From: a virus
Direction: 5' to 3' (one strand)
Length of the DNA: 64,000 bases
Virus record (IMG/VR): IMGVR_UViG_3300032285_004008
Both the position numbers and the translations under genes were made by a program. The notes under the pieces were generated by a model. It did no database searches. It saw nothing but the letters and a program-made list of their open reading frames with translations, and was not told the origin of the DNA. Shown here piece after piece: positions 18,737 to 33,635 of the stretch. Every line of letters starts with the position of its first letter. Within the stretch, counting starts at the first letter, position 1.

Positions 18737-20083
18737 ATGAGCAAAAGAACCGGTAAGCACTCCGCACAGCAGAATGACTTTTTGCAGCCAGCTGCAGTAA
18801 CTATCACCACTGCAACTAACGTTGGTACTAACCGACCATACCTGTTTTCTGCTACTGGAAATGCTGGCACTGGTGGTGCAGTAAACCTAGTATGGACTCT
18901 ACCTAATGGCTCAGCTCCAGCTATAAGCTACGATATTACAACTACCCCTACAACTGTAACCAAAAACACAACTACACTTCCAACTTCTGGATCTCCATTC
19001 GTATTTGAAGGTCTTGCCTCTGGTACAGACTATACATTCACGGTAGTAGCTAAGAACAATGCTGGAAACTCAAATCCAACAACTTCTCAAACAGTCTCTG
19101 TAAGTACTGTACCTCCTGCCCCAAATACTCCGTCAGTTCGTCAGGTCAGTAATGACCAAAATGACTACCTAACAATTACAATCTCTGCAACTGGTGGTTC
19201 TGCAATTACCAACTTCCACTGGGAAAGTACTGACTCTAAGTCTGGTGACCGAGGAACTAGTACCGCAGAATTTGCTGTAGCTCAGGAAGCTAATACTGCC
19301 CAACAGTATCGTGCTTATGCCACAAACGCCAATGGAAATTCAGACTGGTCTGGTTATTCTGGGTCTGTAACAACTCCTCCTTACTTCCCCCCTTACTTCC
19401 CGTTCTTCCCTTACTTCCCGCCATTCTTCCCGTACTTCCCTCCTTATTTCCCATACTTCCCATATTTCCCTCCTTATTTCCCATACTTCCCACCGTTCTT
19501 CCCTTATTTCCCTTATTTCCCACCGTTCTTCCCTTACTTCCCACCGTTCTTCCCTTATTTCCCACCGTTCTTCCCGTTCTTCCCGTTCTTCCCTCCTCGC
19601 TTCTGCATCGAGGAAAGTACTTTGGTTGATACTCCTTCGGGATCAGTAGCGGCTAAGGATCTTAAGGTAGGAGATACCTTGGTATCAGTAGCTCTAGAAG
19701 AGCTTTCAACAGAGCCTCGATCTGAAGAAAACTTTATTATTGGCCCTACACTAACCCTCGGCGGTGGAGAGCCAGTAGAGACTACTATCGTTGACATTAT
19801 CGAGAGTACTAAGGCAGAAATCGTATACTTCAATGAAGATACAACTGCTAAGTACTCAAATGAGCAGTCAATGTTTGCCCTAGTTGATGGTCAGTTCCAG
19901 ACTATAAATGCTGGACTACTGAAGCCTGGAGACTACTTGGTCAAGGTGCTGCCGGATGGTACTTATGTAACAGAAGAGATCTCATCTATCACCGAGATTT
20001 ACGAACCTACAACCGTATATCAGTACATCTGTGAACCATATAACTGGTTTATTGCAGGTGGATATCTAGTACACCAGAACTAA
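18737..20083 (+). CDS. FN3-domain protein with a P(P)[YF]F repeat tract and C-terminal Hint domain
   Basis: FN3-like GLASGTDYTFTVVAKN and YRAYATNANG; 76-aa Pro/Tyr/Phe tract; then CIEESTLV...DLKVGD...VY...WFIAGGYLVHQN. Confidence 0.8.
   Translation: MSKRTGKHSAQQNDFLQPAAVTITTATNVGTNRPYLFSATGNAGTGGAVNLVWTLPNGSAPAISYDITTTPTTVTKNTTTLPTSGSPFVFEGLASGTDYTFTVVAKNNAGNSNPTTSQTVSVSTVPPAPNTPSVRQVSNDQNDYLTITISATGGSAITNFHWESTDSKSGDRGTSTAEFAVAQEANTAQQYRAYATNANGNSDWSGYSGSVTTPPYFPPYFPFFPYFPPFFPYFPPYFPYFPYFPPYFPYFPPFFPYFPYFPPFFPYFPPFFPYFPPFFPFFPFFPPRFCIEESTLVDTPSGSVAAKDLKVGDTLVSVALEELSTEPRSEENFIIGPTLTLGGGEPVETTIVDIIESTKAEIVYFNEDTTAKYSNEQSMFALVDGQFQTINAGLLKPGDYLVKVLPDGTYVTEEISSITEIYEPTTVYQYICEPYNWFIAGGYLVHQN
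19376..19603 (+). repeat. coding repeat tract of 22 P(P)[YF]F units (last one PPRF), 76 aa
   Basis: counted directly; 9-nt and 12-nt pyrimidine-rich units. Confidence 0.95.
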
Positions 20084-20089
20084 ATTAAG

Positions 20090-20122
20090 AAAAAATAAGG
20101 CCCCCACGGGCCTTATTTTTTT
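20090..20122 (+). terminator. intrinsic (bidirectional-type) terminator closing fibre operon 1
   Basis: AAAAAATAAGGCCC-CCAC-GGGCCTTATTTTTT perfect hairpin. Confidence 0.9.
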
Positions 20123-20150
20123 GCCAAAATCAGGATAATAGTGCTAGACT
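20121..20150 (+). promoter_or_regulatory. sigma70/SigA-type promoter for the oxygenase array
   Basis: TTGCCA-N18-TAGACT with extended TG, 24 nt before the ATG, which has an AGGAG RBS. Confidence 0.55.
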
Positions 20151-20174
20151 GGTGCCAATAGTTCAGGAGAATAT

Positions 20175-31000: not shown

Positions 31001-31284
31001 CCATAGACATGTCTACTGATAGCATCGTTCATATCCATGTTAATTCAGGAACTCTTACAGTTACTTTAGCTAACCTTACCGCGGGTAGAACTTGTGAGTT
31101 ATTGGTCATGTACGGAAACACTTCTGGGGCACAGGTTTTGCACGGAATAACTGGGGCTTATCAATCCAGCAACTCATCAAATGGTCAATCTTTTTTCTTG
31201 CCAACTAAACAGTTCAGTTCTTACAGGTATTACTGTGTAGATGGCACTCTTGCAAACACCTTCGTAGTAGGGCAGGTCATCTAA
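28012..31284 (+). CDS. collagen-like fibre protein, 1090 aa
   Basis: hundreds of G-X-Y triplets ([15 protein letters not shown]) interrupted by small globular domains; C-terminal head domain. Confidence 0.9.
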
Positions 31285-32663
31285 TGGCTATAAATTTTCC
31301 AGACTATCCAGAAGTAAATGACCTATTTACTGCAGGCAACACCACATGGAAGTGGTCAGGATCTGCTTGGAATGTTGTTCGAATTCCGCCTACGGCAGAT
31401 CCAGGACCTACAGGACCTACAGGACCAACTGGTCCTCAGGGTACGTCTATTAGATTTATGGGCTCGGTAGAGACTATTTCTGCACTTCCAAGCACTGGAA
31501 ATAATATAAATGATGCTTGGGTAGTAAACGAGAGTGGCGATCTTTACGTCTGGGATGGAGCACTTCCTTGGCATAACGTTGGCCAGATTGTAGGACCTAC
31601 GGGTGCAACAGGTGCAACTGGTGCAACGGGAGCAGATAGTACAGTTCCAGGGCCTACAGGGGCAACTGGTGCTACGGGACCTCGAGGAGAGACCGGGCCA
31701 ACTGGAGTAGCTGGTCCTACCGGTCCTCAAGGAGCAACTGGTGCAACTGGTGCAGATAGTACGGTAACTGGTCCTACAGGCGCTACGGGAGCAACAGGTG
31801 CAACAGGTGCAACAGGTAGTCAAGGATCAGTAGGGCCTACAGGTTCAACCGGTCCTCAAGGGATTCAAGGTGTTCAGGGTGCAACTGGATCTCAGGGCGT
31901 AGTAGGGCCTACAGGACCTCAAGGCAGTGTCGGCCCGACTGGAGCAGATAGTGCAGTTCCTGGCCCTCAGGGAGCAACAGGTGTAACGGGAGCAACTGGT
32001 GCTACGGGTGCAACCGGTCCGCAGGGAATACAAGGTATTCAAGGCATAACTGGAGCAACTGGTTCCACTGGAGCAACAGGTGCTACTGGTGCTAAAGGAG
32101 ATACCGGGCTTACAGGGGCTACTGGACCGACCGGCCCAACGGGATCTACCGGTGCAACTGGTGCAAACAGCACAGTCCCAGGGCCTACCGGTCCAACTGG
32201 TCCAACAGGTGCGACTGGTGCTACTGGCAGCCAAGGTATTCAGGGAATCCAAGGAGCTACTGGAAGCCAGGGTATTCAAGGTATTCAGGGTGCAACTGGA
32301 TCACAAGGAGTGGCTGGTCCTACCGGTCCTCAAGGAGCAACCGGGGCAACCGGACCTACGGGTGCAACAGGTGCAACAGGTGCAAATAGTACGGTAGCTG
32401 GTCCTACAGGGCCTACTGGCTCTACAGGTGCAACTGGTCCTACTGGACCAGCAGGAACCTATACTTTTACGTCTCCACTAGTAAATAATTCAGGTACGGT
32501 TAGTGTATCTAGTGATCCAACCTTTAGTGGTACTGTTACTGCAACTACCTTTAATGGCACTGCCACAAATGCGTCTAAGATTAATAATAGACAGCTATTC
32601 GTTGCTGCCAGCGGTCCTACTGCTGGTGTAGCTAACGGGGATATCTGGATTAAAACTTCTTAG
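31284..32663 (+). CDS. collagen-like fibre protein, 459 aa
   Basis: G-X-Y repeats; MAINFP...WKWSG.AW N-terminus; GDIWIK C-terminus. Confidence 0.9.
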
Positions 32664-32672
32664 GAATAGACA

Positions 32673-33635
32673 ATGGCAACCGCAACGACAGCATTTAGTG
32701 GTAGACCCACACTATCGTTACGCTCTACCGTAACTGAAAGCAGTACAAACGCTAGCACCTATGTAACTTCAGTTAACTGGAGCTTGGTGATTATTGCTTC
32801 CAGTAACACATCTACGGCCTACAATACTGGTGGTACCGCTGCTTGGTCTATGGATGTCAATACTAATGGAAGTACTCCAGTATCTTCTGGAACCTATAGT
32901 TACGATTTTCGCGCACCGAATACAACAACAAATAAAACTATTGCATCTGGTAGTAAAAATATTTCTAGAGGCTCGTATGGGTCTTATACCACAAACTTTA
33001 GTGGATATGCAGATGGTGGAACTGGTGGTCTAATTGGTTCCGCTACAGCCGCTGGATCTCTTGCTCTAAGTAATATTGTTGCTCCACCATTCTTCCCATA
33101 CTTCCCGCCATTCTTCCCGTACTTCCCTCCTTATTTCCCATACTTCCCTCCTTATTTTCCTTATTTCCCACCGTTCTTCCCGTTCTTCCCTCCTAACTTT
33201 ACTCCAGCTCCTGGATGGTCTGGAACCGGTACAGATGTTGTATTAGCTACAGCAACCGAAGGAATTTACTACTCAGATGGAATAGCTGCAAGTAATGCTA
33301 CTTCATACTCAATTACCAGCGGTTCATTCCCTAGTGGAATAACATTTGATACTTCTACTGGAGCAGTATACGGGACACCAGCTACTGGAACTAAAGGAAC
33401 ATACAACTTAACATTCACTGCATCTGGTGCTGGAGGTAGCACTACAAGTGGGACTATAAGTTTGATTGTTGTTCCAGAACCTGGTCAACTATTTACATAT
33501 GACACTGCCACTGGAACCTGGAAAAAGGCAATAGTAAATACATACTCTAATGTGGGTGGAGTTCCAACATCAAGCAAGAATACCTTGTATGTATATGACT
33601 CAGCCTCAGGCCAGTGGGTAATTAGTAAGGGTTAA
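32673..33635 (+). CDS. virion protein with a P(P)[YF]F tract and putative Ig (He_PIG-like) domain
   Basis: beta-rich N-terminal domain; 39-aa tract; then YSITSGSFPSGITFDTSTGAVYGTP..GTYNLTFTAS. Confidence 0.75.
   Translation: MATATTAFSGRPTLSLRSTVTESSTNASTYVTSVNWSLVIIASSNTSTAYNTGGTAAWSMDVNTNGSTPVSSGTYSYDFRAPNTTTNKTIASGSKNISRGSYGSYTTNFSGYADGGTGGLIGSATAAGSLALSNIVAPPFFPYFPPFFPYFPPYFPYFPPYFPYFPPFFPFFPPNFTPAPGWSGTGTDVVLATATEGIYYSDGIAASNATSYSITSGSFPSGITFDTSTGAVYGTPATGTKGTYNLTFTASGAGGSTTSGTISLIVVPEPGQLFTYDTATGTWKKAIVNTYSNVGGVPTSSKNTLYVYDSASGQWVISKG
33084..33200 (+). repeat. coding repeat tract of 11 P(P)[YF]F units (last one PPNF), 39 aa
   Basis: counted directly. Confidence 0.95.

Follow-up and report, generated by a model that had tools for sequence, protein, structure and literature searches.

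The Pro-rich, Tyr-containing repeats of extensins and of mussel foot protein 1 are hydroxylated by prolyl 4-hydroxylase (P4H)-type enzymes, giving rise to rod-like or adhesive proteins, and proline-rich repeats, of the (PAPK)n type, are also a feature of the algal virus PBCV-1. In the Skp1 pathway of Dictyostelium and Toxoplasma, the prolyl 4-hydroxylase PhyA acts first and is followed by the GlcNAc-transferase Gnt1 (PMC3515798). Marine cyanomyoviruses possess multi-copy 2OG-Fe(II) oxygenases, for which roles in DNA repair or 2-oxoglutarate (2OG) metabolism have been proposed (Sullivan et al. 2010, PMC3037559).

The current study concerns a stretch of 64,000 nucleotides of viral DNA (IMG/VR record IMGVR_UViG_3300032285_004008), hereafter the window. 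It belongs with a family of uncultured lake phages in which a Pro/Phe(/Tyr) repeat is present on small fibre-associated proteins and is almost always adjacent to an array of oxygenase and DUF6065 genes. No published description of such a tract combined with an oxygenase/DUF6065 system was found in the literature.

Results

The relevant features of the window are as follows.

14810–17848, + strand: large virion structural/fibre protein, upstream neighbour (phrog_5838 'virion structural protein', E 1e-271)
17851–18711, + strand: fibre-like protein (matches tail fibre/minor tail PHROGs)
18737–20083, + strand: tract protein T (FN3-FN3, P(P)[YF]F tract, Hint/BIL domain, in this order)
19376–19603, + strand: P(P)[YF]F tract of 76 residues (translation, TRF), the proposed modification substrate
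19604–20083, + strand: C-terminal Hint/bacterial-intein-like (BIL) autoprocessing domain (profile of 25 homologues)
20090–20121, + strand: terminator-like hairpin (T run on the + strand, A run before the stem)
20175–20927, + strand: oxygenase 1, core, P4H-like (PF13640, E 2e-11; orthologues in most loci)
20941–21690, + strand: oxygenase 2, core (PF13640, E 1e-13; retained in minimal modules)
21690–22427, + strand: DUF6065 paralogue a (PF19541, 92.8 bits)
22408–23145, + strand: DUF6065-type paralogue b, core, predicted dUTPase-like fold (phrog_7084, E 1e-34; model pLDDT 90)
23160–23834, + strand: oxygenase 3, core (PF13640; orthologues in 177 ORFs)
23812–24588, + strand: oxygenase 4, variable (PF13640)
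24588–25313, + strand: oxygenase 5, variable (PF13640 at 25.7 bits, under the cut-off; triad present)
25327–26124, + strand: oxygenase 6, variable (PF13640)
26162–26851, + strand: oxygenase 7, variable (PF13640)
26868–27557, + strand: oxygenase 8, variable (PF13640)
27647–28012, + strand: small phrog_1084 protein, possibly fibre-assembly related (PHROG match)
28012–31284, + strand: collagen-like tail fibre with G-A-T / G-P-T repeats (PF01391, E 1e-97)
31284–32663, + strand: second collagen-like fibre protein (PF01391, E 1e-38)
32673–33635, + strand: second tract protein, with a 39-residue tract (33084–33200) and then a He_PIG Ig-like domain

The Hint/BIL domain, the collagen-like fibre genes and the terminator hairpin were all absent from the initial annotation of this DNA.

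The two P(P)[YF]F runs given in that annotation, at 19376–19603 and 33084–33200, were recovered exactly, and a scan of all six frames returned these as the only such runs in the window, the chance of five consecutive P[YF]F units being approximately 1e-19 per site. The longer tract comprises 32 P, 30 F, 13 Y and 1 R with TRF periods of 21 and 51 nt, and its reading frame is fixed by domains encoded in the same ORF, i.e. FN3 upstream (Pfam fn3 match at residues 45–116) and Hint downstream. Its Pro codons are mixed (CCT 14, CCG 9, CCA 8, CCC 1) while the residues remain constant, a pattern suggestive of selection at the protein level. Homologues of this tract protein occur in more than 150 viral contigs, and proteins similar to the 32673–33635 product are present in two loci (L033 and L051). 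The FN3 and He_PIG domains, together with the location of both genes in the fibre module, suggest that the tract proteins are structural. Over 184 distinct tract segments the residue totals are 4358 F, 3620 P and 310 Y; Tyr is thus no general feature of the tract, and Tyr-based (DOPA-like) chemistry cannot be the conserved point. The Ser-Pro(3–5) motif of extensins is likewise absent from the window's tracts, which contain no Ser and are built of P(P)[YF]F units.

The first residue of the Hint domain is the Cys immediately after ...PPRF, and its last residues are ...LVHQN. While the window's copy by itself matches weakly (E 0.001), a profile of 25 homologues matches the BIL domain 2lwy (E 1e-11) and many inteins (E 1e-8 to 1e-4), and Pfam identified Intein_splicing in 24 and Hint_2 in 19 of these homologues. 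The first Cys is invariant (25/25), and 15 of the 25 terminate in HN(K), eight are without HN, and the window's copy and that of L121 end in HQN. The domain therefore shares with BIL/Hedgehog-type Hint domains its profile match, its invariant first Cys and, in most homologues, the C-terminal His-Asn, but differs in that the window's copy ends in HQN rather than HN and is located at the very C-terminus, which leaves no second extein and allows only cleavage or transfer at the N-terminal junction.

The array is separated from the tract gene by an intrinsic-terminator-like hairpin (14-bp stem, 4-nt loop) and is composed, precisely as initially annotated, of two genes of the DUF6065 type and eight PF13640 oxygenase genes, the metal triad being intact in every one of the latter. 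All eight oxygenase ORFs (20175–21690 and 23160–27557) match PF13640, seven of them above the gathering score of 27. The HxD...H motif and the Lys/Arg after the second His are retained in all eight in the paralogue alignment, and 43 orthologues of oxygenases 1 and 2 show no variation at H162, D164, H215 and K225. The oxygenase 1/2 profile retrieved the P4H of Bacillus anthracis first (E 4e-6), followed by LH3, the PBCV-1 P4H and P3H1; 3itq and 5hv0 were the best sequence matches and 6ax6 was also retrieved. The best folds matched by the oxygenase 2 model (pLDDT 90) were PHD2, PPHD, PhyA, vCPH, C-P4H-II and Cr-P4H, the matches to peptidyl-prolyl hydroxylases having E-values of 1e-10 to 1e-8 and TM scores of 0.5–0.7. 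In sequence and predicted fold the oxygenases thus resemble peptidyl-prolyl 4-hydroxylases, in agreement with the enzyme type proposed previously.

DUF6065b has no Pfam match and was related to the family through phrog_7084 and a purpose-built DUF profile, while an Atlas comparison of its model with viral DUF6065 clusters gave TM 0.83. The top 22 VIA-align matches of this model were all dUTPases or dCTP deaminases (Z 9.1–5.7 against a tool background of Z 7–8, with 105–135 residues aligned), and Foldseek matched it to dUTPase weakly (E 7e-4, TMq 0.27). By eye only, its 'SGIIDND' and 'PAGTPYAQ' look like dUTPase motifs III and IV; no motif V-like C-terminal arm was seen in DUF6065b, no Pfam dUTPase match to it was obtained even at E 10, and DUF6065a is without IDND. 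Exactly two DUF6065 genes are present in 38 of 46 complete arrays, and the number of oxygenases per array ranges from 1 to 11. DUF6065 paralogue clusters without tracts also exist.

Genomic association of tract and array had been put forward in advance as a test, and the outcome was strongly positive. A strict same-strand tract ORF lies upstream of 96 of 102 non-redundant arrays for which at least 1.5 kb of upstream flank was available (median gap 289 bp), and inspection of the six exceptional arrays revealed an interrupted tract or a flank that was too short. The reciprocal search, with DUF6065b as the query, returned the tract-array pattern in 48 of 53 loci. The minimal module consists of the tract and the orthologues of oxygenase 2 and DUF6065b (L188, L189, L190, L194 and L198), and oxygenase 2 is 64% identical to the sole oxygenase of L188. 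Fifteen tract loci were without a nearby array; DUF6065 is encoded elsewhere on ten of these contigs, including both of those rated 100% complete, while the remaining five are fragments (5–50% complete). In prokaryote genomes the tract was found only on phage-like MAG contigs with an identical gene order. Array size and tract length correlate between clades only (rho 0.50), sister pairs being split 6 to 4. The siphovirus loci may all derive from one phage lineage, in which case shared ancestry accounts for part of the conservation of gene order. Cyanomyovirus relatives of the oxygenases occur without tract or DUF6065, and short unrelated contigs join PF13640 with DUF6065.

In 13 relatives the tract is separated from the array by a gene of PF11397, the family of the Skp1-hydroxyproline GlcNAc-transferase Gnt1, and in P0145 PF11397 is fused to DUF6065; both observations lend support to the earlier suggestion that glycosylation may follow. 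The myovirus locus L217 encodes, in order, an FN3-(APYY)n-Hint protein, a PF11397-DUF6065 fusion and a second DUF6065 protein, and no oxygenase was seen within 15.5 kb of this contig, indicating that the tract-DUF6065 link needs no oxygenase. A PF11397 homologue was not detected in the window by tblastn, and the GT2-TPR gene at 39453–40574 belongs to another family.

Regarding the neighbouring fibre genes, DNA patches of 14810–17848 are 75–82% identical to cyanomyovirus structural genes, and the C-terminal domain of the 17851–18711 product is also found ahead of the tract gene in L195/L197. Both collagen-like genes, with long G-X-Y runs (PF01391), follow the array and precede the gene of the second tract protein. 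A homologue of the 14810–17848 product is also encoded by DSL-LC01, the nearest relative, whose DNA polymerase is 76% identical to that of the window phage; the complete DSL-LC01 genome contains no oxygenase, DUF6065 or tract, although it carries at least five collagen-like fibre genes.

Discussion

Based on the sequence features, predicted folds and co-occurrence reported above, we infer a substrate, a chemistry and a presence on the virion, and consider it more likely than not that the module is a virion-protein proline hydroxylation (with or without glycosylation) system by which a fibre-associated protein is matured post-translationally. This interpretation retains from the initial annotation the tract-array association, the P4H-like enzymes and glycosylation, and abandons Tyr as a general feature of the tract; decoration by several specialised oxygenases, dihydroxy-Pro and an adhesive or shielding role, also suggested there, are conjectural. 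The FN3-FN3-tract protein, and likewise the 32673–33635 product, would present a very hydrophobic, polyproline-II-prone (P)P[F/Y]F repeat, whose prolines would be hydroxylated by the P4H-like Fe(II)/2-oxoglutarate oxygenases, with oxygenases 1–3 as the core enzymes and the variable additional paralogues possibly covering further positions or sequence contexts. In some relatives the Gnt1-type transferase would then add a sugar to hydroxyproline. The DUF6065 pair would be an obligatory accessory, with a possible role in substrate holding or nucleotide binding. The Hint domain is proposed to remove itself at the Cys just after the tract, so that the mature protein of the window would end with the tract; in those relatives whose gene terminates at this point or continues only into a short Cys-rich tail, the tract likewise lies at or near the C-terminus. 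Several observations weigh against this reading: the strong terminator between tract gene and array, the even split of sister pairs as to array size and tract length, the possible single lineage of the siphovirus loci, the oxygenase-free myovirus module, the cyanomyovirus oxygenases that lack tract and DUF6065, and the predicted dUTPase-like fold of DUF6065.

The collagen-like fibres (28012–32663), which the initial annotation had left out, are an obvious alternative substrate, which the oxygenases would hydroxylate in the manner of collagen prolyl/lysyl hydroxylases, the tract protein then being a mere neighbour in the fibre module. Two such genes directly follow the array, collagen-like ORFs lie downstream in many close relatives, and the nearest solved relatives of the oxygenases include collagen P4H, LH3, P3H1 and mimivirus L230. 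However, of 40 arrays for which at least 4 kb of downstream sequence was available, only 14 have a collagen-like ORF within it, and none of those with 1–4 oxygenases has one, while DSL-LC01 has its collagen-like genes without any oxygenase; moreover, the fibre repeats consist largely of G-A-T/G-P-T, in which Pro occupies position X, and Lys-rich triplets are lacking. The comparative data thus oppose these fibres as the main substrate and we regard this explanation as improbable, although fibres and tract could both be used.

It is similarly unlikely that the array acts on nucleotides, DNA, small metabolites or 2-oxoglutarate/succinate levels and that its proximity to the tract is inherited order. 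The predicted dUTPase/dCTP-deaminase-like fold of DUF6065b hints at nucleotide chemistry, the terminator intervenes between tract gene and array, tract-free DUF6065 clusters exist, and for the multiple 2OG oxygenases of cyanomyoviruses a function in repairing DNA or in 2OG metabolism has been proposed (PMC3037559). Yet the top matches, by sequence as well as by fold, are without exception peptidyl-prolyl or lysyl hydroxylases rather than AlkB or TET/JBP (the sole Tet_JBP match, at 18 bits, falls below the cut-off of 34.9), no dUTPase family is recognised at sequence level, the array resides within the fibre module and shares its strand, architecturally unrelated tract proteins occur in genomes that also contain the array, and the association with PF11397 suggests that the substrate is a protein. 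L217, together with the near-constant pair of DUF6065 genes beside a highly variable number of oxygenases, would instead favour DUF6065 (with or without the glycosyltransferase) as the true partner of the tract, serving for example in chaperoning, assembly or glycosylation, while the oxygenases would be a lineage-specific addition with another target. We accord this a low probability, as at least one oxygenase accompanies DUF6065 in every siphovirus module, the minimal ones included, PF13640 and DUF6065 are also paired on short unrelated contigs, and the L217 evidence extends over just 15.5 kb of a myovirus contig.

Considered as a putative proline hydroxylation system, the locus has partial counterparts among known systems. 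As in cyanomyoviruses, an aquatic phage genome encodes several PF13640-type oxygenases, those of the cyanomyoviruses being 31–38% identical to oxygenase 2; in S-MbCM7 two oxygenases come after a short tail fibre gene, but that locus, unlike the window, is without DUF6065 and tract. Mimivirus L593/L230 and the P4H of B. anthracis similarly place a microbial or viral P4H/LH beside collagen-like structural genes, whereas the comparative data presented here tie the enzymes to the tract. Extensins and mussel foot protein 1 have comparable Pro-rich, Tyr-containing repeats, and a Chlamydomonas P4H (3gze, 2jig) is a fold match; here, in contrast, Ser-Pro(3–5) is lacking, Phe dominates over Tyr and there is no secretory pathway. 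The Skp1 pathway likewise combines a cytoplasmic P4H with a PF11397-family transferase, and PhyA (6t8m) is a top fold match, but its target is one proline of a regulatory protein and not a virion-protein repeat, and the window has no PF11397 gene. In PBCV-1, finally, a virus-encoded P4H-type 2OG oxygenase (vCPH; 5c5t, which ranks with the best matches of oxygenase 2 in both fold and sequence) is similarly accompanied by viral proline-rich repeats as its likely substrates; that eukaryotic algal virus has a single enzyme with neither DUF6065 nor a Hint domain, whereas the system described here belongs to a bacteriophage, with up to 11 paralogues and an aromatic PFF/PYF tract.

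Results

Tract proteins and coding status of the tract

The initial annotation had described two structural proteins carrying tracts of P(P)[YF]F units, and both are present in the window. The first was verified to the base as a run of 76 residues consisting of P(P)[YF]F units only and one final PPRF, the second is a run of 39 residues, and a six-frame regular expression search of the window detected no further tract-like run. The features concerned, of which the Hint domain and the two collagen-like genes had not been part of the initial annotation, are:

14810-17848, + strand: large virion structural/fibre protein
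18737-20083, + strand: first tract protein
19376-19603, + strand: first tract
19604-20083, + strand: Hint (autoprocessing) domain
21690-22427, + strand: DUF6065 protein (DUF6065a)
22408-23145, + strand: distant DUF6065 paralogue (DUF6065b)
28012-31284 and 31284-32663, + strand: collagen-like fibre proteins
32673-33635, + strand: second tract protein
33084-33200, + strand: second tract

Five consecutive units would be expected from composition alone at a frequency of approximately 1e-19. Since the first tract shares its reading frame with the FN3 domain before it and the Hint domain after it, and since all four third bases occur among its Pro codons although the encoded residues remain constant, we conclude that it is coding; a DNA-level repeat without coding meaning was ruled out on these grounds. 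The Phe codons are TTC in 30 of 30 cases in the window tract and in 92% over 184 tract segments, compared to approximately 40% in neighbouring genes. The tract is 42% Pro and contains no polar side chain. Family-wide, 4358 Phe residues were counted vs 310 Tyr, and the Tyr-rich tract of the window is therefore a variant; tyrosine chemistry is not the conserved point.

The first tract protein continues for approximately 160 residues after the tract, with Cys as the first residue and LVHQN as the last. A profile of 25 homologues of this region matched the bacterial intein-like domain 2lwy (E 1e-11) and then a series of inteins, with Pfam matches to Intein_splicing for 24 and to Hint_2 for 19 of the 25. 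The first Cys of the Hint domain is invariant, and HNK forms the end of most homologues (HQN in the window copy). What comes after the tract differs within the family: nothing or two or three residues, a Cys-rich tail (30-40 residues with many CxxC), a Hint domain, or further FN3/Ig-like domains. Self-cleavage of the Hint domain at its own first Cys would leave a mature window protein ending in ...PPRF, essentially the same product as that of relatives whose gene ends right after the tract. The C-terminal position of a Hint domain on a phage fibre-associated protein is unusual.

Linkage of tract and array

The proposed co-occurrence of tracts with oxygenase/DUF6065 arrays was borne out by a pattern scan and a reciprocal scan. 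Employing a degenerate DNA pattern for PYFPPYFPYF, the former matched at least 119 viral contigs, in which the typical tract ORF encodes approximately 200 residues of FN3 domains followed by the tract, the genes directly 3' of it being ordered O-D-O-D-O... or O-O-D-D-O... (O, oxygenase; D, DUF6065). The reciprocal scan, seeded with DUF6065b, yielded 80 loci, with a tract ORF in 48 of the 53 that had upstream flank among the matches listed. Following pooling and removal of duplicates, 102 arrays had 1.5 kb or more of upstream sequence, and a strict same-strand tract ORF was present in 96 of these (median gap 289 bp; among the matches listed), counts that are not independent events, as the siphovirus loci probably constitute one lineage. 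The exceptions inspected had tracts broken by PPGF or PPSFC units, or extra genes inserted combined with too little flank. In one clade the module consists of only a tract protein of 234 residues, a single oxygenase (64% identical to oxygenase 2 of the window) and a single DUF6065 protein (62% identical to DUF6065b).

Tract proteins also occur away from the array, as tandem 165-177-residue proteins, as He_PIG proteins like the 32673-33635 product, and as giants of 960 and 1566 residues. Among the matches listed, DUF6065 was found elsewhere on 10 of 15 contigs with such stray tract proteins, including both that were rated complete, and the remaining five are fragments, 5-50% complete. Phage DSL-LC01, the nearest complete relative (129 kb), lacks a PF13640-type oxygenase, DUF6065 and any tract-like run; it does possess at least five collagen-like fibre genes and a homologue of the 14810-17848 protein. 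A search of 185,579 prokaryote species genomes located the tract on short lake-MAG contigs only, assigned to five phyla/classes with gene order unchanged, and these contigs look like binned phage DNA. Taken together, the scans, the stray tracts, the DSL-LC01 control and the prokaryote search indicate that tract and array are present or absent together. The tract protein and DUF6065a had no tblastn match in 50,697 phage records, a search in which the BLAST low-complexity filter may hide tracts.

Within the 92-bp gap from tract gene to first oxygenase, a hairpin at 20090-20121 (14-bp stem, T7 tail), absent from the initial annotation, is predicted to act as a strong intrinsic terminator, possibly a bidirectional one since an A run precedes it. 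Just after the hairpin (20121-20150), the sequence resembles a promoter with an extended -10; counts in the promoter scan were at the level of shuffled sequence (33 found vs 32 expected).

The oxygenases

The array of eight 2OG-Fe(II) oxygenases was upheld, as eight ORFs match PF13640 (one just under the cut-off) and all retain HxD...H and the Lys/Arg. A profile of oxygenases 1/2 matched a B. anthracis prolyl 4-hydroxylase (P4H) best (E 4e-6), in addition to collagen lysyl hydroxylase LH3, transmembrane P4H, PBCV-1 P4H, P3H1, PiuC-type hydroxylases and mimivirus L230. The AlphaFold model of oxygenase 2 (pLDDT 90) gave fold matches (E 1e-10 to 1e-8, TM 0.5-0.7) to PHD2 with HIF peptide, Pseudomonas PPHD with EF-Tu, Dictyostelium PhyA, PBCV-1 vCPH, human C-P4H-II and Chlamydomonas P4H with (Ser-Pro)5, all of which hydroxylate protein proline. 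Searched singly against PDB sequences, oxygenases 3 and 6 produced weak matches only (PiuC, P4H, P3H1, TET; E >= 0.006), too weak for assignment.

Oxygenases 1-3 and both DUF6065 proteins form the core, oxygenases 4-8 are variable, and the number of oxygenases per array ranges from 1 to 11 among the related loci listed. A dose relation, in which oxygenase number follows tract length, was dropped as evidence: the raw Spearman rho is 0.50-0.54, but the correlation vanishes in sister pairs on the DUF6065b tree, which split 6 vs 4. No significant correlation was observed between oxygenase number and the number of tract unit types (rho 0.16).

The DUF6065 proteins

Both DUF6065-like genes of the initial annotation were confirmed, DUF6065b being a distant paralogue (15-19% identical). 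Its model (pLDDT 90) has a barrel resembling dUTPase/dCTP-deaminase: the top 22 VIA-align rows all belong to this superfamily (Z 9.1-5.7), the Foldseek match is weak, and the stretches SGIIDND and PAGTPYAQ resemble, by eye, dUTPase motifs III and IV. At sequence level no dUTPase family match was found in Pfam at E up to 10, and the PDB sequence profile returned spurious nucleoprotein matches only.

The family comprises 3,071 clusters (50% identity) at E 1e-3 or better, mostly viral, and exactly two DUF6065 genes occur in 38 of 46 complete arrays among the related loci listed. PF13640 and DUF6065 are paired again on short unrelated contigs, one of which also encodes a sugar-nucleotide epimerase. 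On a haloarchaeal-looking element (L219) with an acidic proteome (HalOD1, TrbL_3), three or four DUF6065-like paralogues are clustered, one a 479-residue tandem fusion, with neither tract nor oxygenase. The contigs of three representatives (P0143, P0160 and P0164) were too short for gene context.

Association with a glycosyltransferase

Among the loci listed, 13 related loci carry two or three extra genes between tract gene and array, one of them encoding a PF11397 'GlcNAc' glycosyltransferase (E 7e-20), a family named after Gnt1. At these loci (L140, 5355-7736, and 12 others) the extra genes specify a 267-residue protein without known family, the transferase, and a 198-residue protein without known family; judged by their HxD/H-rich motifs, the first and last may be further oxygenase-like enzymes. 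The Gnt1-like transferase searched singly had no match among PDB sequences, and nothing relevant on PF11397 came up in the literature. In the Skp1 pathway, Gnt1 adds GlcNAc to the hydroxyproline made by PhyA (PMC3515798).

A natural PF11397-DUF6065 fusion (P0145) was identified on a myovirus contig (L217) with sheath, gp19 tube and baseplate genes, and ties DUF6065 to a protein-glycosylating enzyme. At this locus (4356-8250), the gene immediately upstream of the fusion encodes three FN3 domains, an (APYY)n-type Pro/Tyr tract and a Hint domain, and directly downstream is a second DUF6065 gene. A second lineage thus repeats the order FN3, aromatic/proline tract and Hint, followed by two DUF6065 proteins. 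No oxygenase was detected in the 15.5 kb of this contig seen, so a link between tract and DUF6065 is possible without a neighbouring oxygenase.

Genome setting and likely host

The module lies in a + strand block of tail-fibre-type genes (7.9-33.6 kb) of a large siphovirus, whose tape measure, Dit and head-tail adaptor genes are located on the - strand elsewhere in the window; a PrimPol-D5 primase, a family A DNA polymerase and a ribonucleotide reductase are also encoded. As the polymerase is nearest to that of Actinomycetia phage DSL-LC01 from Dishui Lake (75.9% identity), followed by those of 186-195 kb Microbacterium and Arthrobacter phages, the host is probably a freshwater actinobacterium. 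Cyanomyovirus structural genes share DNA patches with one of the window's fibre genes.

Just upstream of the fibre block, a SAM-dependent methyltransferase (6309-7118, - strand) adjoins a 317-residue protein without known family (pair at 5359-7118). The 10739-14461 gene encodes a 1240-residue fibre protein with an Mtd_N (major tropism determinant N-terminal) domain and 39/117-nt tandem repeats (11837-12150), and an Mtd_N fibre is likewise situated upstream of the minimal module (L188). Approximately 5 kb past the module, 38349-40574 encodes an APS-kinase-like P-loop protein, a DUF6356 protein and a GT2 glycosyltransferase with TPR repeats, a cluster which could be a source of sulfation or glycosylation and for which no link to the module was found. 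In DSL-LC01 (101148-107690), a tryptophan halogenase and a glycosyltransferase lie directly beside collagen-like fibre genes; it may be common for fibre modules in this group of phages to include modifying enzymes.

Discussion

Based on these findings, the tract protein, the oxygenases and DUF6065 probably constitute one maturation module, and we lean, by a small measure, towards proline hydroxylation of the tract. Hydroxylation would render the tract soluble and stabilise a polyproline-II rod, to which a sugar would then be added in some phages. The earlier interpretation is thereby supported in part, namely in its tract-array association and its prolyl-hydroxylase-like enzymes; Tyr-based chemistry is not the conserved point.

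The G-A-T/G-P-T collagen-like fibres, whose genes lie between the array and that of the second tract protein, are of the kind that such enzymes modify in textbook cases, yet we regard them as improbable main substrates of the array: collagen-like genes do not follow it, being downstream in only 14 of 40 arrays and in none of the small ones among the loci listed, and DSL-LC01 has such fibre genes but no PF13640-type oxygenase. It seems similarly doubtful that the array performs nucleotide or metabolic chemistry, its place next to the tract gene being due to inherited gene order; beside this reading stand the dUTPase-like barrel of DUF6065b and, on the other side, the protein-proline hydroxylases matched by oxygenase 2. 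There is likewise only a slim chance that DUF6065, with the transferase where present, is the true partner of the tract and that the oxygenases act elsewhere, a reading which the myovirus contig would accommodate and beside which the oxygenase kept in even the minimal siphovirus module has to be placed.

Returning to the maturation module, a more speculative joint reading, unlikely to hold in all its parts, would be that these phage fibres bear an extensin-like hydroxylated (in some lineages glycosylated) aromatic polyproline rod, that P(P)[F/Y]F is a portable tag on unrelated virion proteins for a multi-enzyme 'hydroxylation code', that DUF6065, of dUTPase-derived fold, is an obligatory subunit of protein hydroxylase/glycosyltransferase systems, and that a Hint thioester ligates the rod C-terminus to a virion or host component. 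If true, the 2OG-oxygenase arrays of aquatic phages would for the first time have a concrete class of substrates. Ever since cyanomyovirus genomes first became available, multiple copies of 2OG-Fe(II) oxygenases have been a characteristic of aquatic phages that lacked an explanation, and the module offers a specific, expressible substrate, its three-gene minimal version (tract, one oxygenase, one DUF6065) being suited to experiments. Confirmation would reveal new chemistry in phage host recognition or virion stability, and enzymes that hydroxylate unusual Pro-aromatic sequences. DUF6065, of which a literature search found no mention, is given a first context and a candidate fold, and a phage fibre-associated protein is seen to terminate in a Hint domain.

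Hydroxylation of virion proteins after translation is known from giant and algal viruses; we know of no instance in bacteriophages, and a literature search found none. Prokaryotic collagen-like proteins are, to our knowledge, generally taken to be without hydroxyproline. In PBCV-1 and mimivirus, too, the virus encodes both a P4H and structural proteins with proline-rich repeats, and the pair of P4H and Gnt1-type transferase is already known from the protist Skp1 pathway. The nearest phage precedent is the oxygenase sets of cyanomyoviruses (PMC3037559); in the one inspected, S-MbCM7 (35898-38228), two 2OG-Fe(II) oxygenases are interleaved with a 303-residue protein of no known family directly after the gp12 short tail fibre gene, at a locus without tract and without DUF6065. 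No paper describing a system such as the present one was found in the literature search. What is new in comparison is that the system belongs to bacteriophages, that one genome places the aromatic PFF/PYF tract on several unrelated proteins, that arrays reach 11 paralogues, that a DUF6065 pair is obligatory and that the tract proteins have Hint or Cys-rich ends.
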